Of a stretch of DNA of 64,000 nt, positions 4,262 through 64,000 are shown in pieces. Every line of letters begins with the position of its first letter. Position 1 is the stretch's first letter. The stretch is from Nitrospirota bacterium (lineage in GTDB: Bacteria > Nitrospirota > Nitrospiria > SBBL01 > JAADHI01). The notes under the pieces were generated by a model. It had not been told where the DNA came from. It saw only the letters and a program-made list of their open reading frames with translations, and searched no databases. The stretch covers positions 9,121-73,120 of the forward strand of contig JAJDBT010000118.1 of NCBI GenBank assembly GCA_029261215.1, read 5' to 3'. The translations under genes and the position numbers were made by a program.

Positions 4262-4349
4262 ACGGATTCAGCGCACAAGATCCTTGAATTCAATAACAAC
4301 AGTGATTATATTGGTCAAACAACATTAATGTCGTGAGAGTGACTATTGA

Positions 4350-4378
4350 TTGTCAGCTGTTTTCCAGTGTGCTAGAAT
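4350..4378 (+). promoter_or_regulatory. Sigma70-like promoter for ftsH (TTGTCA-17 nt-TAGAAT, with TGc directly upstream of the -10)
   Basis: The hexamers were read directly at 4350-4355 and 4373-4378, about 55 nt upstream of the ftsH ATG. A GGAG Shine-Dalgarno lies at 4422-4425. Confidence 0.5.
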
Positions 4379-4431
4379 GCAAAGATAGTATCTCTACATT
4401 TTTTAAGCCTATGGACTTTTAGGAGAAATAG

Positions 4432-29562: not shown

Positions 29563-30090
29563 TTATTTTTTGGTCATCGTATTCAGCTGACTGACGACTT
29601 TATCTGTGATATCGCCACTTTCTTCCGAATACAACACCGGGCCGCCTTCCTTATTTTTATCCAGCACAAGGGTATAGCCTTCTTTTTTGGCCGTTTCCTG
29701 AATCGCTTTTTCTAAAGTCTGAAAAAAAGTCCGGTTTGTTTCAACTTTTTTGTCCTGAACTTCTTTGTTCATTGCCCTTGCTTTTTGCTGATAATCCGTG
29801 AACTTCTTCTGCATTTCATCCTGCTTCATCTTCGAGGCCTCCGGAGAAAGCAGGGCCGCTTGTTTTCTGAGGTCTTCTTCCATTTGTCGAAGTTCTTTTT
29901 CTTCGATGTCGATAATTTTTTGACGGCTCTCGACATATTCCTGAACGTTCGCCTGCACGCGTTTACCTTCATCCGAGATCTCAAATACTTTTTGCGCATC
30001 CACAAATCCAACCTTGAAAGAAGCGGCCGTGACCGACGATACGAACACTAATGACACCATCAAAACAAAATAAAAACTGACTCTTTTCAT
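29563..30090 (-). CDS. skp: Periplasmic chaperone Skp (OmpH family)
   Basis: It has a signal peptide and a K/E/Q-rich coiled-coil body. It lies between bamA and lpxD. Confidence 0.88.
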   Translation of the reverse strand: MKRVSFYFVLMVSLVFVSSVTAASFKVGFVDAQKVFEISDEGKRVQANVQEYVESRQKIIDIEEKELRQMEEDLRKQAALLSPEASKMKQDEMQKKFTDYQQKARAMNKEVQDKKVETNRTFFQTLEKAIQETAKKEGYTLVLDKNKEGGPVLYSEESGDITDKVVSQLNTMTKK

Positions 30091-35700: not shown

Positions 35701-36146
35701 GATATCACACGAGTGGGCTGGGGGGAACCGGTTAGAGTGCTAGCGTTTTCATAAATTTGAATGGCATTTTGGGCTGTATTGGCCACATAAAGCGTGTCAT
35801 TGCTTCGATCCAAAAAGACCCCGGTCGGACCCGTGATCGCATTCGGGAACTGACGGTCAGGAAAGACATTTCCATCTGGTACGCGGGGAACGATTTTTGA
35901 CTGGGCCGTTTTTGAGTTGGAAGATAAAGGGTCAAAAGCAAGGAGCCGACCATCGCCCCCATTGGCCACATAGAGCGAGCCTCCAAAGGTAAAGGTCTCC
36001 TGAGCGGCTGTTTTCGGAGCAGGTCCTGCTGTTTCACCACAAGCAGAGAGAATAAAATAAAAGAGAATGAGCAAACAGAGAGGAAACCTCCGTTTGAACC
36101 CTTCGATGAGAACGTCTACTGTTTCAATCCTGCTTCTCAATATCAT
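32742..36146 (-). CDS. Giant beta-propeller-repeat lipoprotein (YVTN/NHL-like blades, about 18 repeats), unknown function
   Basis: Lipobox ILSAC is present. About 18 copies of a blade core occur, such as DTLYVAN..N.I.IY and DRLYVSN.... A linker motif (Y/F)ENAS(T/S)L...P.R.I.G recurs. Seven short Cys pairs sit in the loops. Confidence 0.8.
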   Translation of the reverse strand: MILRSRIETVDVLIEGFKRRFPLCLLILFYFILSACGETAGPAPKTAAQETFTFGGSLYVANGGDGRLLAFDPLSSNSKTAQSKIVPRVPDGNVFPDRQFPNAITGPTGVFLDRSNDTLYVANTAQNAIQIYENASTLTGSPQPTRVISGSKTLMDEPYAVAFDGVTERLFVANRGGNTITAFHSSCISAAPLDGDILPCTLLVGDQTQLDFPRALAIDPSKNLLYISNAGSDSILVYDNANALGASPASCINDFTSCNIPPTRIISPHEDLDKSVSKLELPFGIALDRVNDRLYVVNTGLNQPAVLIYEDASTLNGGVVPERVITGLNSGLTVPAGIAVDETRGRVIVVNNNSPNNVNSSTGNNVDSPSVVVFNEIDMVCPLLASPSSCELSPDSRIGGDVSPETGTTLSSPVGLAFDPTRDTAYIANTGANNIFIYVVEENTAPLKENFGAATTTLLNVPSGVFYDLALDRLYISNAGNGMTPSLYPITVYNHVSDESFNVSKAPDWTIGGSSFNMPRGVYIDKTRNLMLVADGSSVGSPAKYGLIAYNLNTSFSNGVTPVPFPINNADGPSGSETSKVDLQAPGALNRGTDGLSPGGPTAMTVDEARGEVYVADKNNNSVVVFKLPPPAGPWLKEREITGLKKPYGVFIDTQRDILYVTNNGVETGVSSDNTVYVYENASTKGDGGTACFAAPCLPDRIISTEGFADPQKKLKAPISPYVDLATNRLFLIKSASHVEGSVTYPEAVLTFQEASTLGDATSACLDRTGVCADVDLTKVKKLSGDKTRLAFWQDAGTTPLRRYTGAVFLSKHKNNDTLYVAQSAQKNCVSGCSGGALLVYGIEGRVPPSKIWSDGSGGFVSPEALALDPIKNVLYVANQGSNTLSILEKADKVDVTLDATTGKRDLNNLQLNRPAGLVIDSALDRLYVSNSESISCGTLPCNAVLVFNDASTLLDGQTPSETISDPDLISPRGLAVDGLRKRLYIASHGNNAVLVFSVEGAAARSLFLSGVQSGLDEPAGLALDSVRDILYVLNQGKTEVLVFENASSLSGNASPSRVITGRDGNGNNFMVKLSGIFVDAGKDILYVADRDANAVYIFPDASTATGQSPLKTLAGDKTGLQSPVAITVNTSSP

Positions 36147-49666: not shown

Positions 49667-50134
49667 TTAAGACACTTGCATATCCAAAACAGTAAAAAAG
49701 ATCACAAGCAGTCCCGCCAATAAAACCACCAAATTTAAAAGCATCGAAAAGCCATGAAACCGCCGAAAGCGCTTTGATTTTTCTGCTTCATCAGAGCAAT
49801 CCGTTGAGGCCCTGAGATCGTTCTTGAGCTGTCTCACTTTTGGCACAACAATAAATGCGGCATAAAATGTCGAGAGCATCATAAAACTTAATGTGATAAG
49901 CCGCGCCCTGTGCCATTCAAACACGACAGATGACATGGCCAATGTCCCCAAACTTAAAACACTGCACAGACATCCCACTTGATAGTATTTTGGAAATATT
50001 TTAGCCACAATTTCGCCCGCAGTTTCTTTGGGAAAGGCTTTAAAAATCGACGGTGCGGCAATCAATGAAAAAAACACCATGGACCCGACCCAAACCGAGA
50101 GAGACAGGAGATAGAGAAACTGCAGTAAAATCAT
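49667..50134 (-). CDS. DUF4149 (TMEM205-like) four-TM membrane protein
   Basis: The N-terminus reads LLSLSVWVGSMVFFSLIAAPSIFKAF...AGEIVAKIFPKYY, typical of DUF4149. It starts 15 nt downstream of the FG-GAP gene stop. Confidence 0.6.
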   Translation of the reverse strand: MILLQFLYLLSLSVWVGSMVFFSLIAAPSIFKAFPKETAGEIVAKIFPKYYQVGCLCSVLSLGTLAMSSVVFEWHRARLITLSFMMLSTFYAAFIVVPKVRQLKNDLRASTDCSDEAEKSKRFRRFHGFSMLLNLVVLLAGLLVIFFTVLDMQVS

Positions 50135-50149
50135 ACTATTATCACCTGA

Positions 50150-53100
50150 TCAAGGTCCTTCAAGTCGGCTAGAATTTGTTGGTTTCGTCAAAACGGGTTT
50201 ACCGGAAGGGATTCCATCGCAAGCGTTTCCAATACCGTCTCGATCATCATCTTCCTGTCCGAAATTTGCCACAAAAGGACAGTTATCCACATCATCGTTA
50301 AAGCCATCGCCGTCTCCATCCAAAATCGAGAGCTCACAGGCATCCCCTATGTCGTTTCCATTCACATCAACTTGATCCGGGTTTGCAATATTGGCACAAT
50401 TGTCTATTTGATCCGGAACCCCGTCCCCATCACTGTCTCCCGGTAGATCCGCATCCGGCCCCAGCATGCGCACCACATAGGTGCTGTTCGGATCAAGACG
50501 TACAGCATATTGGGCCCCAACTTCATTAGAAATACACTTAGGCCCCGGAGGACAAAACTCTTCCGCTCTTGAACCCAAAAATGAAATTTCAGCTTGTCCC
50601 ACCTTCGTACACGTTTCTCCCACCACCCGGCATGTCACTCCGACAGCCGTGACATTTCCCGGCATACCTGTATCGACATTTAAATGAGTATAAAACAGAC
50701 TGTTAAAAGCGGTAATATTCACCAGGGAATTGCCCGTGAGCGGTGTCACTGAGGGAGAAACCGCATTTCGTGTCCCTTTGAGGATGTTTAAACCAAAGGG
50801 CAGATCAAAAATAATAAAACGCCCACTATTTCCCGTTTGATTCAGCAAGGGATCCACGTCCAGTGCATCGTTCAAATACCGCACAACGCCGACCGGGTTT
50901 CCATCCAGATCACGAGGGTCAACAAGCACATCCTTGACCGAACTGCGTTGACTTAACAGAATCGAAAGGTTGTCAGAACCCGAGTTAAGCGCGATCAGGT
51001 CATTATGCCCGTCCTGATTCAAATCACTCATTAGCAACGCTTTTGGCGCACTGCCCACGGTAAAAGATTTTGAAGGGAGATCAAATCGGCCATCGCCTTT
51101 TCCTGCCACCACAGAAAGGGTGCCGCTTCCTTCATTCGCAATTACGATATCAAGGGTCCCGTCTTGCTCAAAATCAAGTACGAGCAGTGCGCGTGGCATC
51201 GTTCCGGGTGTCAGGGGACAATTTTCATTGATGGGGTCTGTCGCAGGGTTCGGGCCGGGGAAACAATCAACCTTGTCAAAACGATCATTCCCATCCCCTT
51301 TAAAAATAGACAAATCATCAGAACCCGCGTTAAGCACAACAATATCAAGAAGACCATCCGCGTTGAAGTCCCCAACCCCGATGTCGCTCGGATTGTCTCC
51401 CGCGACAAGTGCGGTATTGATTGATCCGTCCCCACTCCACAAAAGGGAGACAACTCCCGAATTGGTCGCCACCGCGAGATCCAGAATATTGTCATCATTA
51501 AAATCCCCTGTCGCAATCCCTGTCGGCGAACCCGCGACCGCACAAGGGGTCGGGCAGGGTGAGTTATTGACAGAGAATCCTCCTCTCCCGTCACCCACCA
51601 GGACCGAAAGGTTGTTTGAGCCCTCATTCGCAATCACAAGGTCAAGCCGCCCATCCCGGTTTAAATCAGCCACCTTGATATGCCCAGGCGCCGTACCCAG
51701 ACCCGCTGTGATGGGCGTAAGAGTCGAAAACGCGCCATTCCCTGTCCCCCACAAACGTGAAATAGAGTTTGATCCCCGGTTGACAACGACGAGATCCGTG
51801 AAACCATCCTGATTAAAATCTCCCGCAGCAATCGCCGCCGGATCGTTTTCAACACCAATTGAAGCGGGCGTCGCCGGAATAAACCCGCCATTCGCCTGAC
51901 CTAAAAAAATCTGCACCTGATCCGGCGCGTGCACAACGGCCACATCAGGATAAACATCCTCATTAAAAAAACCTGCCGTCATGGCCTTCACACCTGAACC
52001 TGTCGAAAGAGTACTGACCGCATCGACAATCGTCTGCGCAACCACCTCACCCGCCACAAGGCCCTTTTGTAAATCAAGACTCACGCCCGCCTGAACCGCC
52101 AGCTGAGACAACTCTGGTTCCGATGTCACATAAAATTGAGCGTCCGTCTGTGGGTTCAATCCGGTTTTGAGTTGATCATTATATGTATCGATGAACCCAT
52201 TTTTAACCACCTTGGTTAAAAATGAACCATTTGCAGGAATCGGCACCCCGGGTGAAACCGTCAAGGATTCGGATGTAAAACGACTTCGCTCTCCCAATAA
52301 TGAAAGCGCTGCACCCGAAACCGGATGATTGTGCAGATCACTCAGATTGCCTCTTACAGGCACATTCAAGGGAACATGGTTCAGCGCAATATCCACCTTG
52401 TGCACACTGTCCGGAAAAACACGGATAATTTGATTGCCAGAATCATCCGAACCGGCAGTCTTGAGCATGACCAGTCCGGGAGGAATGTTTCGGATTAAAA
52501 ACAGACCATTATCTGTTGTTTCAGTTAATGCAAAATCCAGAACCCCGGCGGCATTAAAATAGCTGATATTCCCCACAGGATTTCCGCTTGTCATCACATG
52601 ACCATTCTGATCGATCATCTGCGTCGTCAAAAGCTGTACTTCGTTGTTTCTGCCTCCCAGGCGTCGGTTAATCACGCGCCCCAGAATCGCCCCAGAGCCA
52701 TTTGTCGCACCAATGAATCCGTTTGAGACCAAGGTCAGATCGAGGTTAAGATCCTGGCCTCCGGTATTCACCGACTGATAGGTTGTCACATGTGTGCCGC
52801 CTGACTTTTCAAGGCGAATCAAAATCGTATTATTTGCGAGCAAAGGGGCGATTGCTTCCGAATCTGTTCCGGCTGCAATCGCATATGTCCCTGTCGCAGC
52901 ATCTGAATTAGCGAAGATCTCTGAAAGCCCCATCACACGCATTGAGACACCGCCCACAGGGGTCAACCCATCTTCCTCTAAAACAGTGCCTGACAGGCCA
53001 ACGGTATACCATGTCGGAGGCAATGCCGAGACGGAAGCGGGGTCTACCCGAAGCGCCGTTTCCATCCGCATGTTCAGGAGGGTCAGGCTATTCGGAAACA

Positions 53101-54382
53101 CGGAGGCAAGCGCATTACCCGTTGACTTCACCCTTAAGCCCGAGCCGTCGGTCGCATCAACCACTGCGTAAGCCTTTAAATAAACATCACCCGGAGGCAG
53201 GTTCAGAATCAGAAAGATCCCTTCCGTCGAGGTTTGCACCTGACATCCCGAAATACTCGCATTGTTGCAGACCGGAAAATCGCTGCCCGTGGGAAAATAA
53301 AAGGTCTCGCCAATGGGATTTCCTTCAGCATCCGTTGCGATGACCACAGCCCCGTCTTTTCTGCCTACATTTCCTTCAATCCCGACGGCCTCGGAAATAT
53401 TACCCAATAACATGCCCCGGCCGGAAATCAAGGAAGCTCCAGCAGCCAGAACCAACTGCTGGACATCTTGATTGGCAACACTCGAAAAATCGATTGTGAT
53501 CTCCGGAGTTACGGCGTTCGCTGTTAAGTCGGCCAGGTCGGTAAAAACAGTCTGATAGGTATCTATGTGTCCTGCCGCAGCGACCTTGGAGAGAAATACA
53601 CTTTCGGAACCCAGCCCTGAAGCACTGAAAGCACCGCGTCCCGTCGTCGTAATCGAACCCGCCAGTCCGGGAAAACTGATTTGGCTTGGGCCAACACCGG
53701 TTTCTTTATCCCTTTCCCGCACCACCCCGGCAATATTAGAGGTCGGGAGGGCGACAGGAAAAACAGACATATCGAGCAAGGAGACACTTCCCGCATAAAT
53801 GTTCACCCGTCCGTTTCCTCTGCCGCCTTGCACCGCCTTGACAAAGTGCTGTCCGGGCGGCACATTCAAAGCGGTGAAACTCCCTGAAACTGCGGTTCCC
53901 GTGGTATTAATAAATTCAGGGATGCCGTTAATCCCGTTAAACAAAATAGATGCGACCAATTCGCCATCCGCATTGGTCACTCCGCCTTTGACGGAACCAT
54001 CTATGTTCCTAATAATGCGTCCGGCTTTATCTGTTCCGCCGATTGAAACACTGGGGAGCGGGCGACCGAGGCGGTCCACAACAACCCCACTCAACACTCC
54101 CAGATCTGCCGATTGCTCAGCAGTGCCAGGAACAGCGGTGATCAGGTTTTTAACATCCGCACCGGAAACAATTCGAAGATTACTTAATGTGCCCAGTATT
54201 TCGCTGGTGCCTGTTTTAAAATTGAATGTATAGGTTGGAACCAAAGGAACTTGAAAGCGGCCACCCGTTCGCTCTCCGACGGGGAAGGGGTCTGAGTTGC
54301 ATCCCTGAAAAATAAAGAGACCCCCCAACAGCGTTAAGATAAGTCCTTTAAAAAAAAGAGGGGTTTTCAAGTACTTCAACAT
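50150..54382 (-). CDS. Giant mosaic lipoprotein: CarboxypepD_reg-like beta-sandwich modules + seven FG-GAP/VCBS repeats + C-terminal thrombospondin type-3 (Ca-binding) repeats
   Basis: Lipobox FQGC is present. At least four modules end in the motif N(V/L/I)PPG...(L/V)K. Seven GDFN.DG..D(L/I)V..N.GS..LS(V/I) repeats span aa ~798-1146 (nt 50945-51991). TSP3 motifs DSDGDGVPDQIDNC..NPDQ.D and DGDGDGFNDDVDNCP span nt 50213-50440. Confidence 0.85.
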   Translation of the reverse strand: MLKYLKTPLFFKGLILTLLGGLFIFQGCNSDPFPVGERTGGRFQVPLVPTYTFNFKTGTSEILGTLSNLRIVSGADVKNLITAVPGTAEQSADLGVLSGVVVDRLGRPLPSVSIGGTDKAGRIIRNIDGSVKGGVTNADGELVASILFNGINGIPEFINTTGTAVSGSFTALNVPPGQHFVKAVQGGRGNGRVNIYAGSVSLLDMSVFPVALPTSNIAGVVRERDKETGVGPSQISFPGLAGSITTTGRGAFSASGLGSESVFLSKVAAAGHIDTYQTVFTDLADLTANAVTPEITIDFSSVANQDVQQLVLAAGASLISGRGMLLGNISEAVGIEGNVGRKDGAVVIATDAEGNPIGETFYFPTGSDFPVCNNASISGCQVQTSTEGIFLILNLPPGDVYLKAYAVVDATDGSGLRVKSTGNALASVFPNSLTLLNMRMETALRVDPASVSALPPTWYTVGLSGTVLEEDGLTPVGGVSMRVMGLSEIFANSDAATGTYAIAAGTDSEAIAPLLANNTILIRLEKSGGTHVTTYQSVNTGGQDLNLDLTLVSNGFIGATNGSGAILGRVINRRLGGRNNEVQLLTTQMIDQNGHVMTSGNPVGNISYFNAAGVLDFALTETTDNGLFLIRNIPPGLVMLKTAGSDDSGNQIIRVFPDSVHKVDIALNHVPLNVPVRGNLSDLHNHPVSGAALSLLGERSRFTSESLTVSPGVPIPANGSFLTKVVKNGFIDTYNDQLKTGLNPQTDAQFYVTSEPELSQLAVQAGVSLDLQKGLVAGEVVAQTIVDAVSTLSTGSGVKAMTAGFFNEDVYPDVAVVHAPDQVQIFLGQANGGFIPATPASIGVENDPAAIAAGDFNQDGFTDLVVVNRGSNSISRLWGTGNGAFSTLTPITAGLGTAPGHIKVADLNRDGRLDLVIANEGSNNLSVLVGDGRGGFSVNNSPCPTPCAVAGSPTGIATGDFNDDNILDLAVATNSGVVSLLWSGDGSINTALVAGDNPSDIGVGDFNADGLLDIVVLNAGSDDLSIFKGDGNDRFDKVDCFPGPNPATDPINENCPLTPGTMPRALLVLDFEQDGTLDIVIANEGSGTLSVVAGKGDGRFDLPSKSFTVGSAPKALLMSDLNQDGHNDLIALNSGSDNLSILLSQRSSVKDVLVDPRDLDGNPVGVVRYLNDALDVDPLLNQTGNSGRFIIFDLPFGLNILKGTRNAVSPSVTPLTGNSLVNITAFNSLFYTHLNVDTGMPGNVTAVGVTCRVVGETCTKVGQAEISFLGSRAEEFCPPGPKCISNEVGAQYAVRLDPNSTYVVRMLGPDADLPGDSDGDGVPDQIDNCANIANPDQVDVNGNDIGDACELSILDGDGDGFNDDVDNCPFVANFGQEDDDRDGIGNACDGIPSGKPVLTKPTNSSRLEGP

Positions 54383-54494: not shown

Positions 54495-57400
54495 CTAAAA
54501 ACTGTAACTCAGTTCCAAATAAATACGGTTGCTGTCTTTAAAAAAGCCGATAAAATCAAACTGCCCAACCTCTTCCCCGCGGTCACCCACAAAAATATCA
54601 CTGCCAAAAATAGCTTTCACATTGTCGCTCAGCCTCGTCTCAAGCGCTGGCCGGAAGAGAAAATCCGCTTCGTTAATAAAATAGAGGGACAGGATTCTAA
54701 GTACGAGTTCTTCATTCATGAATGTTTTTCTCATAAAATGAGCGGCAACGGTATCAATGCGATCCTGTAATATTGTGGCGTTCCAGCCCGGAATGTACTG
54801 TTGAATAAACTGCAGGGACATATCCGCACCCAAAAGGGAAAAATCAAGACCGACGGCATATTTCATATAATCGCGCTGTAGTTCACCCAGCAGCGGGGAT
54901 TGATCTTCACTCAGATCAGCGCTGGCGGCAGCAGCCGCATCGATATCCAGTAATGTCCCAAAGAGTTTTCCAAAAACATAGGCATATTCGGCATTCAGCA
55001 CAACACGGCCAAAACTTTTTGAAAGAGTCGTGCCTACGGTGGTAATACGGTGCATCCTTGGCTCAAATTGGACTTCTGGCGGGTCAGAAAATGGATTTAG
55101 GCCCGCGCCGAGGATCGACCGGAAACTCGCAGGAAAATCATCCCATTGATAAAAAACAGTCATTCCGACTTCCCAGTCTTTTATCGTCTGAACGAGCCGT
55201 CCGGCAATTTCTGTATTTTGAAAAGCATTCACATTCAAGTTCAAGGAATCATCCAGAAAAGCTTCTGGGGCAATAAACCCCGGCAGAATCTGAAACTGCT
55301 CAAATTCTGAACCGGACGGGGCCGGTTTATGCGGGACGGCTTCGGTAATCCAAATGAGCTCCAATCGCGCATCCCCTGGGAAAAAGTCTGCCTTCAGCAT
55401 CATCAAGGGAATAAAGCGATCTTCAACTTCTCGTAAAATAAATTCACCAAAATCAAAAGGGTTAATCTCGTCCGTCACCCGCGCACCAGGGACAACCCCC
55501 CAGCGCACGATCTGCTTTCCGATACGAAGATCCATATTTTTAAAATGTGCATCAATATAAAATTCTCTCAAATCAACACTATGCCGATTCTGCTCCACCG
55601 CACGTGAATTTTCGACATCCACGCCAGCGACTTCTTCTCTTGTCGGCGATTGCGGAAGCGTCGTCAGGATTGTATTGTCAAAGCGCCTTGGACTAATCGT
55701 GTCCACATCGACAAAATCATAAATCGCATCATAAAATGTGCGCCCACGGCCGGTAATTTGATATCTTGGAGAAAATGCATACCGACCGTTTAAACGAAGT
55801 AATGTCAGCGCTTTTGTAAAAGTGACCGGACTGTTAATCCGGTAAGCCACTTCATGTTTTAGGGTACCGTCCCATTGGAAATCCTGGAGTAACAAAGGAG
55901 AGTCCTCGGTTGCAAGGTCGGCCTCATCACCCCAATTCAGCCATTTTTCGAATATAGTTTGGTCTGAACTCCCTTTCCCAAAATGAAACCGGAGCGCCAT
56001 TCGGGCTTCAAAACCATCCAGATTTATTCTCAAAATCCGAGGCCGTGTCCCCTCACGCACTTGATCATTGTCACAGGTAATGGTGGTCAGGGTTTGCCCT
56101 CTTGTCTGGTTGTCTCCTAATTGAAAACAGGGATTGACCGATACGCCAGGCTGGCCCGCCGTAGAACCCCGAAAGCCGGATGGAAATTCCCGCTCGACCC
56201 TGAGTTTTGTCACCGTTCCCCAAAGATAGTTGACGCCTAAACCCACTGAAAACCAGGGACGGATAAAAACTTCCCCTCCCAGTCCGGCCCGCGTTGTAAA
56301 ACTCCGACCTCTTGCTTCAAAAGACCCCAGAGAAACAAAAGGCCCGCCGGTTGGATTTTCTTCTGCGCGAATCAGAGCATCCGCTGTTAAATTAACAAAT
56401 GAGCCGCCCAATAGTCCGAGATCCATATAAATACGACCGATTTCAGGGTCGTTCAAGAGGGCATACCGCCATGAAAGGAAAACTTGATTGATGCTCAGGT
56501 TATATCGGGCGCTTCTTGGCAGCAGGCCAGATCGTGTGGGTGAGAATTGAAAAGGGATCAAATCAGTTCTGACGGTGTTGCTTTGCCATTCCGAAAGGCT
56601 CAATACCAGACCATTTCGCTCATTGATGCTCCACTCTGCTTCTATTCCGAGTGTTTCACTGCCTTTAATTTCTTCCATCGCCAAATTTCTTACTTCTGAT
56701 ACAAAACCTGGATTTGAAGGGAGAATATGATTTGGGTCTTGAGCAATGACTGTTTTTGGGTCACTCAACACCTGATTTAGATTTTCCAGAGAAGGTTTGT
56801 AATACCCCGTAGTGAGGCTGACGCTCAGTTGCGTCGCGCCCGACTTCCATTTGGGATAAAGAAATTCCAGATCTGTCGCCGCCGTCAATCCAAAGGTCAC
56901 GATGTCCTGATCATAGGCGCCCAAAGATTGAACTTGGCCACTATTAATATCGACTAAATCAATGTCCGAAGCCACGGGAAGGTTTGAAAGGTTTTTGTTT
57001 CGCGCAAAATTGGCAAAAAAAGTCACTCCAGGCTGAAGGTCATAAGAAAAACCTGCCGTTGCGCTGTACAGCTGATTCTGACGCTTGCGGCGAATTCCTC
57101 GGCTTAGGGCAAATGAATCGGCATTTAAATAATCGGACACGGCATAACTTGCGCCCAGTGTCAATGTTAAGTCGGGACCCAGGTCACGGATGTAATTTCC
57201 AGAGAGGGTTTGCGTGATTCTTTCCTGATCGTTCGCGAGCACATGACTCAGCCCATAGGTATATGATCCCTGAACCCGGCCTAAATCAAAGCCAAACAGA
57301 GAAAGATTCTGCGCCAGAATGCCACTGCCCGTTGCCGTTTTGGTACTAAAAATCGGGTTACTATAGATCTCGATATCCTGATAACTCAGACGGAGTGTAA

Positions 57401-59231
57401 CCGAGGAGGGGAAAACAGCCTGGCGTGATACTTCGGCCGTGTAGCCATTGATCCGAATAAACTTCCCTTTACTTAGGGTATCGCCATACATCGTCCCCAT
57501 TCTAAAATTGTAACCCAATACCACACTATAGGATGAAATAAACTGCGCATATAAAAGACTTGCGCCAGTATTGACAAAATAAAGCTGAGAATGGTGAAGC
57601 AGGCGCGTATTGAAATTAATCTGAAAAGGAATTTTGAGCAGTTCCTTTTTTTTCAAATAATAGGTTAATGCAAGATTGGATTCAGAGCTTACTTCACTGA
57701 TCGGCACCTGACTCCGCGTACTATTGCTATCAAACGAGACGGCCATGTCGGAATAGCTGACATTGAACTTTTTTTCATATAAATCAACGCGACCCTGTGC
57801 AATTTTTTTCATCCTTGCTTCTCTGTCTTTAGACAAGTCGAGTACCGCGTGATACGCATCCAATGCGTTTTGAATCTCATCTTTTTTTTCATACAGAATG
57901 CCAAGCCGCATATGTGCCCCGGCTTCCAATGGCCTTACAGTCACCGCATCTTTGTAGATTAAAATGGCCTTATCAAGGTCGTTCATCTTTTCATAAATTT
58001 CACCCAGCAGGAAATAACTGAGATAATGATTCCGATCAATTTCAATGGCCGCTTTGAGCTTTTGCTCCGATTCCTTCAAATCGCCTTCTTCCAGGGCGAT
58101 CTGGCCCAGATGGTAGTGGACAAGCACCTGTTTCGGTAAATACGTAAGCACAACAAGAAATGCTGCCCGCGCACCTTCAAAATCTTTCCTGGAAAGTAAT
58201 CGGCCTCCTTCTCTCAAAAGTGATTGAACCAGAATTCCGATTTCCGGGGTTTCCCCTATTTGGGATAGCTTTTGCCTCGCAATCATCACTTCTTGTTGCT
58301 TTGGATCGCTAACTTCCTGTAACAACCCCTGATATTCGCTAATCGCCTTGTCAATTTCACCTTTATTTTCATAGGTTTGTCCTAGAAATAATCGTGCTGA
58401 AAATAAATCGGGCTTTTGCTCAAGCGCTTTTCTTAATCTATCAACCGCTTCATCCAATTGTCCTTTCTGAATCGCAATGATCCCCAGACTAAAAAGCGCC
58501 TTTGGATTTTCGGGGTCGAGAATTAATCCTTTTTGAAACAGATCTGTTGCCTCTGCAATCAAACCTTGTTTTAAGTGCGCTGTCCCATTTTGGAAGAAAG
58601 CTTCTGCATGTTTTTTCAGAAGAGCAATTTGGGACTCTGCCTGCTTTTTTTCAGGGCCCTCACCTTTAGACGCAACGGCAGCACGATATCGCTCAATGGC
58701 TTTAAATATTTCCCCCTGACTTTGGAACAATAAGCCCAAATAATAGTGGCCCCCCGGATAGTCAGGGTTGACATCAATCGCACGTTCAAAGGCAGCGATG
58801 GCTTTTTTATTTTCTTTCGTTGCGGCATAAGCCTGCCCGAGTAAAAGGTGTCCTGCTAATAAACTCTCGTCTATTTCAACAGCCTGCCTAAGCACCTCTA
58901 TTGCCCGATCAATCTCACCTTTTCGAGTATAGATAATCCCAAGCAGAAGATAGGAGGGTGTATGCCTCGGGTTTACCAACAAAACGTCCTGAAAAGCAGA
59001 GATAGCCTGGCTCAATTTTCCCTCACCCATCAAGGCCCTTCCTTCCTCAAAGATGGCCCGCTCAGTTAGGTTAGGGCTTGTTTGGGCCTGTACAGGAGAG
59101 GGAATAAAGAAGAATAATCGTCCGACTAAAAAGAGAATACCCACGAAAGCAATGAACGCTTTCTTTGGGACAAGATCCTTAAAGATCGGTTTTTGAGGTC
59201 GCACCTTCACTAAAAAATCAAGTCTCCACAA
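54495..59231 (-). CDS. Giant outer-membrane protein: signal peptide + ~415-aa TPR array + up to three tandem beta-barrel-like modules (the C-terminal one DUF1302-like)
   Basis: TPR repeats span aa 55-470. After that, the pattern is amphipathic beta strands. Segments end ...GLTAATDLEF (aa 790), ...FEARMALRFHF (aa 1084) and ...RIYLELSYSF (aa 1578). The block LREFYIDAHFKNMDLRIGKQIVRWG resembles DUF1302. The TTG start is uncertain. Confidence 0.8.
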   Translation of the reverse strand: MWRLDFLVKVRPQKPIFKDLVPKKAFIAFVGILFLVGRLFFFIPSPVQAQTSPNLTERAIFEEGRALMGEGKLSQAISAFQDVLLVNPRHTPSYLLLGIIYTRKGEIDRAIEVLRQAVEIDESLLAGHLLLGQAYAATKENKKAIAAFERAIDVNPDYPGGHYYLGLLFQSQGEIFKAIERYRAAVASKGEGPEKKQAESQIALLKKHAEAFFQNGTAHLKQGLIAEATDLFQKGLILDPENPKALFSLGIIAIQKGQLDEAVDRLRKALEQKPDLFSARLFLGQTYENKGEIDKAISEYQGLLQEVSDPKQQEVMIARQKLSQIGETPEIGILVQSLLREGGRLLSRKDFEGARAAFLVVLTYLPKQVLVHYHLGQIALEEGDLKESEQKLKAAIEIDRNHYLSYFLLGEIYEKMNDLDKAILIYKDAVTVRPLEAGAHMRLGILYEKKDEIQNALDAYHAVLDLSKDREARMKKIAQGRVDLYEKKFNVSYSDMAVSFDSNSTRSQVPISEVSSESNLALTYYLKKKELLKIPFQINFNTRLLHHSQLYFVNTGASLLYAQFISSYSVVLGYNFRMGTMYGDTLSKGKFIRINGYTAEVSRQAVFPSSVTLRLSYQDIEIYSNPIFSTKTATGSGILAQNLSLFGFDLGRVQGSYTYGLSHVLANDQERITQTLSGNYIRDLGPDLTLTLGASYAVSDYLNADSFALSRGIRRKRQNQLYSATAGFSYDLQPGVTFFANFARNKNLSNLPVASDIDLVDINSGQVQSLGAYDQDIVTFGLTAATDLEFLYPKWKSGATQLSVSLTTGYYKPSLENLNQVLSDPKTVIAQDPNHILPSNPGFVSEVRNLAMEEIKGSETLGIEAEWSINERNGLVLSLSEWQSNTVRTDLIPFQFSPTRSGLLPRSARYNLSINQVFLSWRYALLNDPEIGRIYMDLGLLGGSFVNLTADALIRAEENPTGGPFVSLGSFEARGRSFTTRAGLGGEVFIRPWFSVGLGVNYLWGTVTKLRVEREFPSGFRGSTAGQPGVSVNPCFQLGDNQTRGQTLTTITCDNDQVREGTRPRILRINLDGFEARMALRFHFGKGSSDQTIFEKWLNWGDEADLATEDSPLLLQDFQWDGTLKHEVAYRINSPVTFTKALTLLRLNGRYAFSPRYQITGRGRTFYDAIYDFVDVDTISPRRFDNTILTTLPQSPTREEVAGVDVENSRAVEQNRHSVDLREFYIDAHFKNMDLRIGKQIVRWGVVPGARVTDEINPFDFGEFILREVEDRFIPLMMLKADFFPGDARLELIWITEAVPHKPAPSGSEFEQFQILPGFIAPEAFLDDSLNLNVNAFQNTEIAGRLVQTIKDWEVGMTVFYQWDDFPASFRSILGAGLNPFSDPPEVQFEPRMHRITTVGTTLSKSFGRVVLNAEYAYVFGKLFGTLLDIDAAAAASADLSEDQSPLLGELQRDYMKYAVGLDFSLLGADMSLQFIQQYIPGWNATILQDRIDTVAAHFMRKTFMNEELVLRILSLYFINEADFLFRPALETRLSDNVKAIFGSDIFVGDRGEEVGQFDFIGFFKDSNRIYLELSYSF

Positions 59232-59271
59232 AAAAATAGGTCATGAAGCAGTTCATGCTCGATAAACAGAT

Positions 59272-59303
59272 AAAAAAAAGGGGAAGACTTTTAAGTCTCC
59301 CCC
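59272..59303 (-). terminator. Rho-independent terminator after the 287-aa secreted-protein gene
   Basis: The minus strand reads GGGGGAGAC-TTAAAA-GTCTTCCCC followed by TTTTTTTT. This is a 9-bp stem with one G-U pair, starting 38 nt after the stop codon. Confidence 0.85.
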
Positions 59304-59340
59304 TTTAAAATAGCTTAATTTCGCTTTTTTTACGATTTTC

Positions 59341-60204
59341 TTACTGCGGAATTCTTTGCAGATCAGGATCTTGACCTGCGGACTGCCCTGGACCTGTCGG
59401 GGTACTTGCCCCAAAGGTACTGTCAAAGGCAAGAGCGGTCGTGTTGTTGTAATCAAACGACCCTTGCAATGGACCGAGCGCAAAACCGCCTTCCACAATA
59501 GACTGCTCCCAATTAATGGTGCCACCACCGTTGGCGACCGACGAACTCTGCTGACCGACAGAACTGGCTGCAATAGTGACCACTTGCAGTTCATCCCCAT
59601 TCAAGCCTTCAGTAAAGGTTGTCTGCGAGACTGCCTGATCAAAAGAAATGGTGCTGTCCGTCGCACTGTAGGTAAAGGTGTTTGAAAAATCGATCAAAAC
59701 ACCGGCTCTTCCCACAGGCGATGTGCTGGGGGGCACAGTCGTGGCGATAGGCGTCCCTTCCGACAGAAAATCCTGAGTCGGAACGGGCAAACTGAACACA
59801 AAATCCCCAGAGTCGTTACACCCTACCGTATTACACGATGTGGCAGTGGGAATCGTCATACCCTGTACAACGGGATTAAACGCTTTATCCCCTAAATCCG
59901 CATCGCTGTTAAGACGAATGACACCAAACATACTGGCCGTCAATGCGCCCGCTGTCGTTCCGCCTGCATTTGAATTCACACAAGTAAAACAGGGACCTGC
60001 TGAAGCATCTGTATTGCTTACAGCATCCATCAAACTCACGGTTGGATCAAAACCCAACTCGGTACTCCCCATTGTATTTGTTTCATTCGTACAGACAATA
60101 TTGCCAGTACCACCGCCTGTACAAACCTGAGCGGAAGCTTCAGTTCCCGGCAACAATGCATAGGACCCAACAACTAACGCTAATAAAAAGACTTTTTTTA
60201 ACAT
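59341..60204 (-). CDS. Secreted Thr/Ser/Gly-rich protein with three Cys pairs, unknown function
   Basis: The signal peptide reads MLKKVFLLALVVGSYALLPGTEASA. The mature part is almost free of Lys and Arg. Cys pairs are CTGGGTGNIVC, CFTC and CNTVGC. A strong Shine-Dalgarno (GGAGGTGG) is present. I recognise no family. Confidence 0.8.
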   Translation of the reverse strand: MLKKVFLLALVVGSYALLPGTEASAQVCTGGGTGNIVCTNETNTMGSTELGFDPTVSLMDAVSNTDASAGPCFTCVNSNAGGTTAGALTASMFGVIRLNSDADLGDKAFNPVVQGMTIPTATSCNTVGCNDSGDFVFSLPVPTQDFLSEGTPIATTVPPSTSPVGRAGVLIDFSNTFTYSATDSTISFDQAVSQTTFTEGLNGDELQVVTIAASSVGQQSSSVANGGGTINWEQSIVEGGFALGPLQGSFDYNNTTALAFDSTFGASTPTGPGQSAGQDPDLQRIPQ

Positions 60205-60547: not shown

Positions 60548-61369
60548 TTAGCGGTTGGGTCCTCGTAATAACATCCGATCTGAAAATCGCGAATCTTCCA
60601 AACCTGTATCATTCTTTACATCGGTAATTTCGAAAATCGTCTTGTGCTTGGATTGAACATTTGTAATCTCTGATCGTTTCCAAACCAAGACATCCCCCAC
60701 TTTTTGCCAGGAGGTCAATTGCAGTTTTAAAGGCTTCATTGTTCGATCATAGAATTCTACTTTTCGGGCCACCCAGTCTTTTCTTGAAATGAAATAGCGT
60801 TTTTTTCCATAAGGGCTGTCTTGTTCCTTTGGAATACTGTCCACGACATAACACGGTTCATTCAAGCCTCTGCAGACACCCGGCTTATCGAATACCATTT
60901 GATGTTCGTCTTCATCCAGGCGGCGGGCCCCCATATCTGCAAAAGTCAGGTCTGAGCCCATAAAAGAATCATTTTGATCACGAGTGGTCATACGCCTCAC
61001 ACTTCTAAGACTGGGAAGGTATAACCATAGGTCATCCGGTTTCCCTTCAATGGAATAGTCCCAAATTAAAAACCCCGTCCCTTTTTGATCTGGCGGATGC
61101 TCTGTGTAAAATACGCTTTTACTATCCAGCCCCTCTTTTCCGGCAAAGTGCTTATGGAACCGCAAGGTGACAATTTTGCGTTCATTGCCCAGCGCATCAA
61201 TTAAAATCATTGTGACAATCGAAGTTTGATCCATCGTCATATTTGCATGGCTGACCTTTTCCATGACTTCCGCCGCAGTCAACTTCTCTTCTTGGGCCCA
61301 AGCTCGGTCAAATCCTGGGGTGAGCATCAGAATCAAAAAGAAGAGTGCCAATACCGTTTTTTTATTCAT
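60548..61369 (-). CDS. Outer-membrane lipoprotein-sorting (LolA-like / DUF1329-clan) periplasmic protein
   Basis: A signal peptide is present. The family-typical block DDLWLYLPSLRSVRRM......DSFMGSDLTFADM is present. 273 aa. Confidence 0.72.
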   Translation of the reverse strand: MNKKTVLALFFLILMLTPGFDRAWAQEEKLTAAEVMEKVSHANMTMDQTSIVTMILIDALGNERKIVTLRFHKHFAGKEGLDSKSVFYTEHPPDQKGTGFLIWDYSIEGKPDDLWLYLPSLRSVRRMTTRDQNDSFMGSDLTFADMGARRLDEDEHQMVFDKPGVCRGLNEPCYVVDSIPKEQDSPYGKKRYFISRKDWVARKVEFYDRTMKPLKLQLTSWQKVGDVLVWKRSEITNVQSKHKTIFEITDVKNDTGLEDSRFSDRMLLRGPNR

Positions 61370-61953: not shown

Positions 61954-64000
61954 TTAATTTTCAAACTGCGACTTCATCTCACGCAACAAATGATCCTTAA
62001 TCCCCTGGATGGCATCCGGCGACTCAATCTTTTTCTGATCCGCGCCCAAAACATAAAAAACATCAACCACCTGATCCAGGCGCGTTGCAATTTTTGCCGC
62101 ATGCACCACAAGACCCAGCTCCAGAATTCCTTTCGCAATAACAAAAAGTAACCCTTTTTTATCCATCGCAAATATGTCGATAATTGTAAATGTTTTGGAA
62201 CTCTCATTATCCACTTCGACGCGGGTATCCCGCGACGAAACAGGTTCCTTTTTTTGTGGAAACCGGCGGCCCTTCTCAAAAAGGGCCTCAACAGAAACCT
62301 TTCCCGCAAGAACCTTTCGAACATCTTTTCTGATTCCTGCAATACGTTCTTTTGGTGCCGCTTTTTTATGATCAGGATCGATTACCTTGAACGTATCGAT
62401 CACCATGCCATTCGGATGCGTAAACACTTGAGCGCCCAAAATCTCGAGCCCCTTTGCTGAGAGCACCCCCGCCATGGCGGCAAAAATGCCGGCAGTCAAC
62501 CAATCATAGGTGTACAGGGTGTACTCACTCACCCCCTGAGTCGGAAGATAACGGGCCTCCACCTGGATCGGCTCCGTCTGGAGCCGCGACAAAGCCCCCA
62601 GATCCAAAACCACCTGATCAAAAGGCGTCACCAGATAATAGCGCGGAATAAGCGTTTGCAAGGTTTCCTTTAACCAGGATTCGGAATATTTTCCCTTTAG
62701 GGTTTTGAACAATTGTTGTGTGATTTCCTCAACCTGGCTGGCTTCAGAATCGACTTCTTCTCCAATTAAAACCTTTGAAGCTTCTTCAAAAAAGGTTAAC
62801 AACAGTTCCTGTTTCCAGGCCGTCCACATCCCCGGCGCTGTCGCAGCCATATCGGCACAAGTCAGAATAAACAGCTTTCTCAGGGTCTTGAGATCAGCGA
62901 CGGCTTCAGTAAACTGTCTTAGAATGGGCTCATCTGCAAAGTCCCGATAGAGCGCAATTTCAGAGAGAATCAGGTGCTGATGCACCAAAAAAACCAAGAC
63001 ATCCTGCTGGGGTTTGGCATACCCCATTCGATCGGCCACAAGCCCTGCGACTTTTGCCCCCGCTTCGCTGTGATTTTCCAGTCCGCCCTTGCCGATGTCA
63101 TGTAACAAAATCGACAAATGCAGCACATCTTTCCTCTGAACCTTGCTATAAATCTCTTGAAGCGGCCCTGCCTCATTTAAAAAATGCTCTGCTGTTTCAA
63201 GCGCACGAAAACTGTGTTCATCGACCGTGAAGGCATGAGATCGACTTTCCTGAACCAGGCAATTGACCGCCTCAAACTCTGGAATAATCCGCCATAAAAA
63301 ATGGGTCCGGTGCATCATTCGGAGCGTTTTGGCGATGCCTCCGGGTTCTGTCATCAAGGTTTTAAAGAGTGCGTAGGCCCCTGGAGACAAGGGAAGCGTC
63401 TTTTTCTTTTCCGAAATCTGATAAATGGTTTCCAAAACAGCATCCTGAATCCGGAGCGAATGTGTTTTTGAAAGCAAGAACAGCCTTAAAATGTTTTCAT
63501 CCTGGTCAAAAAATTGAAAGGGCTTATCGGATTGAATGGACAACTCTTCTGAAAAGACTTCAAAGCCCGGCGAGATCTGACGTGTCCGCCACGACCGCCG
63601 CCAGCGCTGCCCTCGGCTGACAGGATAGGCCTCGCGAATAAAACGCTTCGAAATCTCCAGCACTCTCCCCGTGTGCAAATAGTAGGCATGCATGAGGCCA
63701 CGGCGATCCTCCAGCTGGAAAAACGGTGCGATTTCTTCCTGTAGCTCAATCGTTAAATGGTCGGAGGCTTTTTTGTCCAAAAAGTGGAGATGGTTTCTCA
63801 GCCGCCATAAAAAGTCCTGCGCCTGAACAAGACTCGTATATTCAATATTTGAAAGATAGCCCCATTGATGGATTTGGGGAAGGTGATGGGTGTGATAACG
63901 CGCAGACGACACCCATTTCAGATAATGAATATCCCGCAAGCCGCCGGGGCTCTGTTTTAAATTGGGCTCCAGCAGGTAGGGTGTTGCGCCATATTCCCGC
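61954..64000 (-). CDS. glnD: [Protein-PII] uridylyltransferase/uridylyl-removing enzyme (N-terminus beyond the window edge)
   Basis: My translation upstream of the ORF-track start continues in frame to nt 64000 (REYGATPYLLEPNLKQSPGGLRDIH, the nucleotidyltransferase signature). It also has the HD motif LLHDIGKG and two C-terminal ACT-like domains. Confidence 0.9.
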   Translation of the reverse strand, partial: REYGATPYLLEPNLKQSPGGLRDIHYLKWVSSARYHTHHLPQIHQWGYLSNIEYTSLVQAQDFLWRLRNHLHFLDKKASDHLTIELQEEIAPFFQLEDRRGLMHAYYLHTGRVLEISKRFIREAYPVSRGQRWRRSWRTRQISPGFEVFSEELSIQSDKPFQFFDQDENILRLFLLSKTHSLRIQDAVLETIYQISEKKKTLPLSPGAYALFKTLMTEPGGIAKTLRMMHRTHFLWRIIPEFEAVNCLVQESRSHAFTVDEHSFRALETAEHFLNEAGPLQEIYSKVQRKDVLHLSILLHDIGKGGLENHSEAGAKVAGLVADRMGYAKPQQDVLVFLVHQHLILSEIALYRDFADEPILRQFTEAVADLKTLRKLFILTCADMAATAPGMWTAWKQELLLTFFEEASKVLIGEEVDSEASQVEEITQQLFKTLKGKYSESWLKETLQTLIPRYYLVTPFDQVVLDLGALSRLQTEPIQVEARYLPTQGVSEYTLYTYDWLTAGIFAAMAGVLSAKGLEILGAQVFTHPNGMVIDTFKVIDPDHKKAAPKERIAGIRKDVRKVLAGKVSVEALFEKGRRFPQKKEPVSSRDTRVEVDNESSKTFTIIDIFAMDKKGLLFVIAKGILELGLVVHAAKIATRLDQVVDVFYVLGADQKKIESPDAIQGIKDHLLREMKSQFEN

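Follow-up and report, generated by a model that had tools for sequence, protein, structure and literature searches.

In this study, we examined a 1578-aa reading frame in a 64,000-nt stretch of DNA (the window) from a Nitrospirota bacterium, and we suggest, with a probability of roughly 70%, that it is a natural fusion of three normally separate outer-membrane (OM) components of one conserved envelope system. The frame is translated without an internal stop. It had been proposed in the first-pass annotation, made from the sequence alone, that a signal peptide and a TPR array are followed by up to three tandem OM modules, and this is borne out by our analysis: each of the modules, here called A, B and C in their order along the chain, occurs elsewhere as a protein or protein terminus of its own, with its own signal peptide and an aromatic C terminus, and the proposed boundaries were right to within about 4 residues (Table 1). 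At least 10 independent assemblies carry the same architecture in a single ORF, at 52–74% identity and with conserved neighbours (P0001–P0004, P0006, the fragments P0007 and P0142, and loci L010–L012). While metagenome assemblies do hold chimeras, nothing specific to this ORF speaks for a mis-assembly or a frameshift, and we rejected an assembly artefact on the basis of this recurrence. Furthermore, B precedes A in the split operons, which means that the fused order A-B-C cannot arise by simple read-through. An artefactual origin is therefore regarded as extremely improbable.

Table 1. Coordinates of the fusion ORF, its parts and the neighbouring genes in the window
Feature	Residues	Position	Strand	Description
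Whole ORF	1-1578	54495..59231	(-)	1578 aa + stop: signal peptide, TPR array, modules A, B, C
N-terminal leader	1-49	59085..59231	(-)	Sec-type signal-peptide-like segment, predicted cleavage between VQA and Q
TPR array	~55-470	57822..59069	(-)	TPR_2 E 1.8e-47 and many further TPR families
Module A	~473-786	56874..57815	(-)	Probable OM beta-barrel; in free-standing TPR-barrel proteins its homologue is the C-terminal domain
A-to-B linker	787-799	56835..56873	(-)	DLEFLYPKWKSGA; stands where free-standing B proteins have their signal peptide
Module B	800-1084	55980..56834	(-)	8-stranded OmpW/OmpA-like barrel, ends in invariant RFHF
B-to-C linker	1085-1116	55884..55979	(-)	Poorly conserved, length variable
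Module C	~1117-1578	54498..55883	(-)	DUF1302 barrel, ends LSYSF
FG-GAP/thrombospondin-3 repeat lipoprotein		50150..54382	(-)	1410 aa, directly downstream of the fusion
Secreted Ser/Thr/Gly-rich protein		59341..60204	(-)	287 aa, directly upstream of the fusion
LolA-like periplasmic protein		60548..61369	(-)	273 aa, signal peptide; two genes upstream of the fusion

Evidence for the split comes from the way in which homologues cover the chain. An earlier word-indexed homologue search with the whole 1109-aa region returned 5 proteins only; using a profile of aa 470–1100 in an exhaustive search against 1.84 billion proteins, 137 matches were obtained. Outside the fused family and its fragments, nearly all of these span either profile positions 4–314 or positions of about 330–616 and not both, which shows that aa 470–1100 comprise two independent modules. 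All 79 module A matches that reach the profile end stop at most 5 residues from their own C terminus, 70 of them with a terminal F, and all 19 module B matches end exactly at their own C terminus (17 with F and 2 with Y). Judged from these alignments, the three-way split is more than chance. No relationship between A and B was found with hhalign, NCBIfam has no curated family for any of the three modules, and the profiles of A and B gave nothing significant against the sequences of solved structures in the PDB. The first-pass annotation had also recommended looking for split versions, and in many genomes these are indeed found as separate genes within the same cluster.

At the N terminus, the proposed signal peptide was recovered as a signal-peptide-like segment (K23K24 followed by the hydrophobic stretch AFIAFVGILFLVGRLFFFIPSPVQA49, with Q after the predicted cut), and an equivalent hydrophobic leader is present in the fused homologues of L001, L010 and L012 and in P0003. 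Of the start candidates TTG1, GTG8 and GTG10, one of the two GTG codons is probably the true start; in the public annotation, the gene call P0001 begins at M68, so that the leader is missing from it. TPR families match aa ~56–469, in agreement with the array that had been placed at nt 57822–59069, and we infer that this part of the protein is a periplasmic scaffold.

The free-standing relatives of module A are TPR proteins of 880–1170 aa with A at the C terminus. Module A contains about 16 amphipathic beta segments, and its Pfam matches are weak and exclusively to OM barrel families, with scores below the cut-offs in all relatives but one, which exceeds the cut-off of OMP_b-brl. Because these matches, though weak, are consistent, and because the free-standing relatives carry a terminal F, module A is probably an OM beta-barrel of an unclassified family. 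The first-pass annotation placed a beta-signal at F790; the boundary holds, but the signal does not. In an ungapped alignment the C-terminal F of the free-standing A proteins falls on T786 and not on F790, and across the fused family position 786 is T/A/K/A/A and position 790, which is not conserved either, is F, F, I, T and L. The terminal aromatic of A has thus been lost in the fused family, leaving a degenerate beta-signal.

A TPR domain in front of a barrel is also found in Slam, in which it is joined to the 14-stranded SlipAM/DUF560 barrel, and the Neisseria Slam proteins handle surface lipoproteins that are encoded adjacent to the Slam gene. The likeness extends to the N-terminal position of the TPR domain, the barrel of about 300 residues that comes next and the adjoining lipoprotein gene, and it could be proposed that surface delivery of the FG-GAP lipoprotein is the task of the TPR-barrel part, with help from the LolA-like carrier. 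This lipoprotein (FG-GAP_3, E 1.5e-43; TSP_3) has a lipobox (...FQGC) and a conserved N terminus, and in 21 of 80 loci, which all belong to Nitrospirota-lineage MAGs (one labelled Leptospirillia), it is encoded after module C. The cluster does encode a LolA-like lipoprotein-carrier fold, and the TPR_Slam family (PF24575) is matched above its cut-off (46.3 vs 35.2 bits); however, the latter match is confined to one 42-residue stretch in which generic TPR families score far higher, and TPR families cross-match freely. SlipAM itself gives weak matches in 3 of 18 module A relatives (best E 0.0015) and in 1 of 10 more (E 0.011), which are no better than those to other barrel families, and aa 478–790 of the fusion do not match it even at E ≤ 10. 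As the barrel does not match SlipAM, membership in the Slam family was rejected. In addition, two extra barrels are attached in the fusion, and the MMPL pump of the related operons is foreign to Slam systems, which to our knowledge have neither LolA-like nor MMPL partners. The gammaproteobacterial operons that contain A, B, C, LolA-like and MMPL genes are without the FG-GAP lipoprotein, which is therefore not a general partner. Taken together, a Slam-like translocon appears unlikely. The FG-GAP lipoprotein is possibly a cargo or partner of the fusion.

A second comparison is with BcsC, PgaA, PelB and AlgK with AlgE, the TPR-barrel exporters of polysaccharides, in which a periplasmic TPR scaffold is likewise joined to a C-terminal OM barrel. 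That the ORF encodes an exopolysaccharide export porin of this type would be consistent with its architecture, with the resemblance of DUF1302 models to the AlgE fold (TM 0.55; PMC13499233) and with NCBIfam matches of BcsC, PgaA and PrsT to the TPR part. However, these matches all lie within the TPR region and are far under the cut-offs: in the fusion BcsC scores 44 bits against a cut-off of 858 and PrsT 135.4 against 312.2, and PgaA, which is not among the top 25 NCBIfam matches of the fusion, scores 29–62 bits in module A relatives against 366.65. The protein is thus no member of these families by sequence, synthase, glycosyltransferase and polysaccharide-modifying genes are absent from the cluster here and in related loci, and the conserved partners are instead LolA-like and MMPL proteins. 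With no synthesis genes and with matches confined to the TPR region, we rejected a polysaccharide exporter and consider it highly improbable.

For module B a structural model could be obtained. MAFFT misplaced A or B rows in mixed alignments of free-standing A, B and C sequences, AlphaFold2 on aa 470–1578 with four full-length homologues gave a mean pLDDT of 31.8, and the structure prediction used here is that of module B alone. This model (pLDDT 87.6, pTM 0.87) is a closed 8-stranded barrel with long strands of 25–29 residues by DSSP and with two long loops, at aa 814–857, which contains a conserved QDPN motif, and at aa 1017–1072. In Foldseek it matched OmpA, OprG, OmpW and Ail (E 8e-6 to 2e-4, probability 1.0), among them the structures 9fzd, 2x27, 2f1t and 3qrc (E 8e-6 to 9e-5), and all top matches are OM barrels of 8 to 10 strands. 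The model superposes on OmpW/OprG, the transmembrane domain of OmpA and Ail/OmpX with target-normalised TM scores of 0.55–0.68; it differs from these OmpW/OmpA-like barrels in having only 8–12% identity to them, much longer strands and the two long loops. No Pfam family, including OmpW, OmpA_membrane and OMP_b-brl, matched aa 791–1084 at E ≤ 10, and OMP_b-brl reaches 22.6–24.9 bits in B relatives, under its cut-off of 28.7. Module B is its own family, found beside MMPL pumps, and its free-standing members are secreted proteins of 300–340 aa that end in RFHF. The second segment had been proposed to end at this motif, and F1084, which is invariant within the fused family, corresponds in the alignment to the F at the actual C terminus of the free-standing proteins. 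The confident closure of B on its own argues against a soluble domain in this region and against a continuous giant barrel; as each module is, in addition, a complete protein elsewhere, one barrel over aa 470–1578 was rejected, and we consider it as improbable as the artefact discussed above.

The intact RFHF could serve as a true C terminus if the chain were cut, and together with the long, unstructured B-to-C linker this would be in agreement with a polyprotein precursor whose periplasmic cleavage would release TPR-A, B and C for separate insertion into the OM. Identity in this linker drops to 30–43%, compared with 59–79% in its flanks, and both its sequence and its length differ among L010–L012; these vary freely among the fused members, and there is no conserved cleavage motif. 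The A-to-B linker is merely about 13 residues long, the terminal aromatic of A has decayed, as one would expect of a module that does not have to serve as a free C terminus any more, and no protease gene was found in the cluster. We therefore think that such processing is improbable, though less so than a polysaccharide porin.

The third segment had been recognized as DUF1302-like, and it matches Pfam DUF1302 (PF06980) well above the cut-off of 23.2 bits, scoring 48.1 bits over the entire chain and 53.1 bits (E 4e-14) over aa 1085–1578. While this match spans profile positions 86–405 of 541, aa 1086–1578 are 45–50% identical over 93–97% to stand-alone Nitrospirota DUF1302 proteins of 460–550 aa, and, of 112 relatives, 107 have their last residue where the terminal F of the fusion lies in the alignment. 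By these comparisons, module C is a full-length DUF1302 member, including the C-terminal aromatic strand. Clusters of DUF1302, DUF1329 and RND genes, such as Sama_1588-1591 in Shewanella, AmeABCD in Castellaniella and PP_0765-0766 in Pseudomonas putida, are widespread, including in Pseudomonas, and have fitness phenotypes, but we know of no mechanism or solved structure for them. In several bacteria, cofitness links DUF1302 and DUF1329 to an RND exporter and a BNR protein, and the role proposed for them is the export of an envelope component (10.1101/072470); the composition of AmeABCD is the same (PMC6394551). DUF1302 has been modelled as an 18-stranded barrel, and as a complex with DUF1329 with an ipTM of 0.84 using AlphaFold-Multimer (PMC13499233). 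As in these clusters, a LolA-like/DUF1329 gene lies near module C, and MMPL/RND genes are present in related operons. In contrast to them, the DUF1302 domain here makes up the last third of a chain of 1578 aa, the window is without a pump gene, and two OM components are added, the TPR-barrel A and the 8-stranded barrel B, neither of which is mentioned in these three reports (10.1101/072470; PMC6394551; PMC13499233). A BNR/Ycf48-like beta-propeller (COG4447) did not surface among the immediate neighbours in a general scan.

The LolA-like gene product is matched by PF17131 (LolA_like, E 2.8e-46, 157.9 bits) and by DUF1329 (45.8 bits vs a cut-off of 23.1), and the gene is kept in L001 (76% identity), L008 and L012. 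In a survey of 80 loci from different genomes, it was found in 44 and an MMPL/RND pump gene in 47, and in 30 neither A nor B is further than 10 kb from C, with all three fused in only 3 of the 80. In 21 gammaproteobacterial loci the genes for C, MMPL, B and TPR-A are separate and on the same strand, mostly in the order C > MMPL > B > TPR-A, and 15 of these loci also contain the LolA-like gene. Split operons such as L034 and L056 comprise genes for all five components (LolA-like, C, MMPL, B and TPR-A), and a split paralogous locus was seen in the MAG CAYVHO01. In Nitrospirota, TPR-A is followed by C and then by the FG-GAP lipoprotein, and on contigs that extend far enough (L015 and L018, and also L006) MMPL > B is found upstream. 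No MMPL/RND pump was matched among the scanned ORFs of the window, nor in the available flanks (up to 10 kb per side) of the fused loci L001 and L010–L012, and for this reason the pump partner is only inferred for the present organism. These arrangements suggest that the A, B and C proteins work together in a widespread envelope transport system made up of a TPR protein with the C-terminal barrel A, barrel B, the DUF1302 protein C, a LolA-like protein and an MMPL-type RND pump. The co-operonic genes and the fusion also point, short of proof, to a three-barrel complex.

The first-pass annotation called multi-barrel polypeptides very unusual. This has to be tempered, as a computational survey by Solan and colleagues from 2021 already listed 34 multi-barrel architectures, mostly from Proteobacteria and Bacteroidetes (PMC8346858). 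An 8-stranded barrel is part of 27 of these, 18-8-8 is among them, and those with three or more barrels are nearly all 8-stranded repeats with at most one differently sized barrel (PMC8346858). The B model and the DUF1302 module C constitute two non-overlapping barrels with a linker of ~32 residues between them, and the two linkers of the fusion, ~13 and ~32 residues, fit the predicted range of 22 ± 13 (PMC8346858), which is consistent with a multi-barrel chain. The fusion thus resembles the surveyed proteins in its concatenated independent barrels, its short delimiting linkers and its one 8-stranded barrel; it differs in that the three modules are unrelated and two are not 8-stranded, in the TPR array in front and in its origin from Nitrospirota. 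Neither DUF1302 nor TPR was found in the main text of that survey (PMC8346858).

Based on the reading of the ORF as a fusion of three OM components, we propose that the chain would pass the inner membrane by means of its single N-terminal signal peptide, and that the BAM machinery would then place the three barrels side by side into the OM, which would be possible because the periplasmic linkers are short. The TPR array would remain in the periplasm and act as a docking platform. The fusion may thus form the OM end of a route for a hydrophobic or lipid-anchored substrate, which the pump, encoded elsewhere in the genome if at all, would hand to the LolA-like carrier and the carrier to the barrels; the giant FG-GAP lipoprotein of the adjacent gene is one candidate substrate, and a lipid of the envelope is another. 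Extending this idea further, A, B and C might constitute a hetero-multibarrel OM machine at the end of a hitherto undescribed five-component pathway that delivers a lipid or lipid-anchored protein to the surface and is distinct from Lol, Lpt and Slam, though we put this forward tentatively. It is with similar reservation that we would assign the pathway to Gammaproteobacteria and Nitrospirota; Bacteroidota and a small number of further lineages would have a reduced form, made up of MMPL, LolA-like and DUF1302 proteins only.

While multi-barrel chains, as computational predictions, and the DUF1302/DUF1329/RND system were already known, the fusion and the operon survey add two unrecognized OM partners to this system, and a heterologous, TPR-bearing three-module architecture from Nitrospirota joins the short and purely computational list of multi-barrels. 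The prediction from the fusion is that its three different barrels function as a unit or complex, which is testable on the fused or the split forms, and, if true, the fusion would be a 'Rosetta stone' for an A-B-C assembly and for a surface-delivery route apart from Lol, Lpt and Slam. As the signal is intact at one junction and lost at the other, the fusion also prompts one to ask how BAM deals with beta-signals inside a chain. Lastly, the secreted 287-aa Ser/Thr/Gly-rich protein encoded directly upstream of the fusion has no match in Pfam or NCBIfam, and a homologue of it occupies the same position in the fused loci L001, L010 and L012.

We assign the window protein, with a confidence of about 0.72, to a conserved LolA-like/MMPL/DUF1302 envelope system, of which it would unite three outer-membrane subunits in a lineage-specific fusion. 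The first-pass annotation had claimed a single 1578-codon ORF encoding a TPR array and up to three tandem barrels, the third DUF1302-like. Translation confirmed the ORF, Pfam TPR repeats span aa ~56-469, and in the third segment Pfam DUF1302 (cut-off 23.2 bits) scores 48 bits over aa 1142-1439, or 53 bits when aa 1085-1578 are scanned alone; aa 480-1084 have no curated family match in Pfam or NCBIfam. Full-length relatives are just a handful, every one from the class Nitrospiria (52-74 % identity), and the fused architecture was found again in at least ten assemblies, a recurrence which contradicts an artefact. Within residues 1 to ~49 lie a basic segment, a hydrophobic core and the site VQA|Q, with TTG1, GTG8 and GTG10 as candidate start codons, and comparable leaders are present in fused homologues, in one case with an ATG start. 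The public gene call (P0001, 1511 aa rather than 1578) takes as its start Met68, which already belongs to the first TPR, and therefore lacks the leader; the true start is probably an upstream GTG or TTG. Three further fused homologues (P0002, P0004 and P0006) are likewise called from an internal ATG in the first TPR and hence without signal peptide.

A profile built from aa 470-1100 found 137 matches among 1.84 billion representative proteins, and nearly all of those outside the fused family span one of two ranges, profile positions 4-314 (module A, aa ~473-786) or ~330-616 (module B, aa ~800-1084). By this measure the middle region comprises two modules that are independent of each other. Elsewhere, module A lies at the very C-terminal end of TPR proteins, most of them 880-1170 aa long, and occurs also in a few proteins of ~300 aa; each of the 79 matches that run to the end of the profile has its own C-terminus no more than 5 residues away, and in 70 of them the last residue is F. 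Module B elsewhere constitutes free-standing proteins of 300-340 aa with signal peptides and the terminus LELDGFEVxxxxRFHF-COOH, all 19 ending at the RFHF point (17 with F, two with Y). F1084 is invariant across the fused family and, since free-standing B proteins end there, the internal motif that the first-pass annotation had placed at this residue is homologous to a genuine C-terminal beta-signal. Its counterpart at F790, the proposed end of segment 1, is not conserved among fused proteins. The free-standing A terminus SLGDYxxxLxxxxxxxF aligns with SLGAYDQDIVTFGLTAAT786 of the window protein, and at the position of the terminal aromatic the fused proteins have T/A/K/A/A. The A-to-B linker, ~13 residues, stands where free-standing B has its signal peptide; the B-to-C linker, ~32 residues, is weakly conserved and varies in length. 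That the chain is cut into three proteins is improbable, as no conserved cleavage motif was found, which together with the decayed terminal signal of A is a mild counter-argument.

Structure prediction of aa 470-1578 from four sequences gave a pLDDT of only 31.8. A model of module B built with 33 free-standing homologues (alignment A4) reached a mean pLDDT of 87.6 and a pTM of 0.87, with eight long strands (aa 801-813, 858-868, 873-897, 900-928, 932-956, 965-991, 994-1016 and 1073-1084). Its top Foldseek matches in the PDB are exclusively outer-membrane barrels, namely the OmpA transmembrane domain, OprG, OmpW and Ail (E 8e-6 to 2e-4, probability 1.0, target-normalised TM 0.55-0.65), followed by the 10-stranded OmpT and Pla. 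The closed barrel predicted for B contradicts a single giant barrel. C1035 and C1053, in a proline-rich, low-confidence loop between the last two B strands, occur in every member of the fused family and could be disulfide-bonded; most aligned free-standing B proteins lack matching cysteines. Stand-alone Nitrospirota DUF1302 proteins (460-550 aa) align to ~94 % of module C with 45-50 % identity; DUF1302, which has no solved structure, has been modelled as an 18-stranded barrel like AlgE and OccD (2026; PMC13499233). Module A is probably a barrel of an unclassified family, judging from the aromatic last residue of its free-standing relatives, from its profile of about 16 amphipathic beta segments and from 38 scanned A domains, whose weak Pfam matches nearly all point to families of outer-membrane barrels (BBP2_2, Porin_4, OMP_b-brl, SlipAM, Omp85, DUF5777 and DUF3187). 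In one relative the OMP_b-brl match reaches 33.5 bits, above the cut-off of 28.7, and the four best, insignificant matches of A to PDB sequences are all transmembrane barrels.

Split versions encoded as separate genes, a point raised in the first-pass annotation, were indeed found in related loci. The order is MMPL, B (314 aa), two secreted proteins, TPR-A (1020 aa), DUF1302 (533 aa) and FG-GAP lipoprotein in L006; TPR-A, DUF1302 and FG-GAP in Candidatus Manganitrophus (L005); and LolA-like, DUF1302, MMPL, B and TPR-A in L008. With local HMMs, we examined the surroundings of DUF1302 relatives in 80 loci, each from a different genome. At a distance of up to 10 kb from C, both A and B were present in 30 loci, MMPL in 47 and a LolA-like protein in 44; A, B and C were fused in three. 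The usual order in Gammaproteobacteria (Chromatiales and relatives) is LolA-like, C, MMPL, B, TPR-A, and a minimal set of MMPL, LolA-like and C occurs in Bacteroidales, some Nitrospira and a few other lineages. Because split operons (L032-L063) place B ahead of TPR-A and C upstream of the pump, the A-B-C order of the fusion required rearrangement, not read-through. In the uncultured Nitrospira MAG CAYVHO01 a fused locus (L010) exists beside a split one (L024: B, then TPR-A, DUF1302 and FG-GAP lipoprotein), and the fusion is therefore a paralogue, not a replacement.

The gene order in the window recurs around the fused homologues in L001, L010 and L012; no pump gene is present in the 64-kb window. 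The profile of the 287-aa secreted protein detected homologues in fused loci only; its short motif PVVQGMTIPT is found also in L004, in a secreted protein encoded close to a free-standing B gene. The DUF4149 gene may share an operon with the lipoprotein gene. A Slam-like translocon for the adjoining giant lipoprotein would fit the pattern of a TPR-barrel beside a lipoprotein gene, and 21 of the 80 loci, all Nitrospirota-lineage MAGs (one labelled Leptospirillia), have an FG-GAP lipoprotein within 10 kb directly downstream of C; however, module A does not pass the SlipAM test and gammaproteobacterial operons lack the lipoprotein, making this explanation unlikely. Polysaccharide export is more doubtful still, as there are no synthesis genes, and the family matches are sub-cut-off and restricted to the TPR region.

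Features of the window and of related loci
Feature	Position (strand)	Length (aa)	Remarks
LolA-like protein	(-)		cluster gene 1; PF17131, plus DUF1329 match
Secreted Ser/Thr/Gly-rich protein	59341-60204 (-)	287	gene 2; no family match
Fusion	54495-59231 (-)	1578	gene 3; N-terminus at 59030-59231
FG-GAP/thrombospondin-3 (TSP3) lipoprotein	50150-54382 (-)	1410	gene 4, directly downstream of fusion; lipobox ..FQGC, conserved N-terminus C-N/G-x-D/Q-P/T-F-P
DUF4149 membrane protein	49667-50134 (-)		gene 5; starts 15 nt past lipoprotein gene
ORF in other frame	59253-59600 (-)	115	overlaps 287-aa gene; no family match; probably spurious
Beta-propeller protein	40739-43549 (+)	936	12 DUF5122 repeats
Beta-propeller protein	32742-36146 (-)	1134	NHL repeats
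BamA homologue	30130-32520 (-)		five POTRA domains, Omp85
ORF	29563-30090	175	directly downstream of BamA homologue
GlnD (PII uridylyltransferase)	61954-63939 (-)		listed start TTG
287-aa protein homologue, L001	8945-9883		directly upstream of fused gene
287-aa protein homologue, L010	~5780		directly upstream of fused gene
287-aa protein homologue, L012	~5709		directly upstream of fused gene
DUF1302-like ORF, L008	within 3311-5535	447	stretch has no called gene; E 2.9e-63 to module C profile

By analogy with a simpler, published form of the system, the fusion that we favour would place its three barrels, with the TPR array in the periplasm, at the outer-membrane end of a transport route, whose substrate may be hydrophobic or lipid-anchored and passed on by the LolA-like protein. 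The genes of that simpler form (DUF1302, DUF1329, BNR protein and RND exporter) are cofit in several bacteria, and it has been proposed to export an envelope component (10.1101/072470); Castellaniella AmeABCD has been linked to monoterpene tolerance (PMC6394551). Multi-barrel outer-membrane chains were already predicted computationally in 2021, when a survey listed 34 architectures, their linkers having a median length of 22 +/- 13 residues; those with at least three barrels, mostly in Proteobacteria and Bacteroidetes, are nearly all 8-stranded repeats with at most one other barrel (PMC8346858). In contrast, the window protein, which comes from Nitrospirota, links TPRs to a probable barrel of middle size, one with eight strands and one of the DUF1302 family, and since a term search of the main text of that survey (PMC8346858) gave neither DUF1302 nor TPR, it is this particular architecture that is new. 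The main value of our findings lies in the evidence placing three outer-membrane families, two of them unnamed, in one widespread, uncharacterised transport system.

The BamA homologue in the window indicates that the standard machinery for barrel assembly exists in this organism. The two large propeller proteins add to a region already full of large repeat proteins. The GlnD match begins at profile position ~184, and the gene is therefore probably longer than its listed start implies, possibly extending past the window end.
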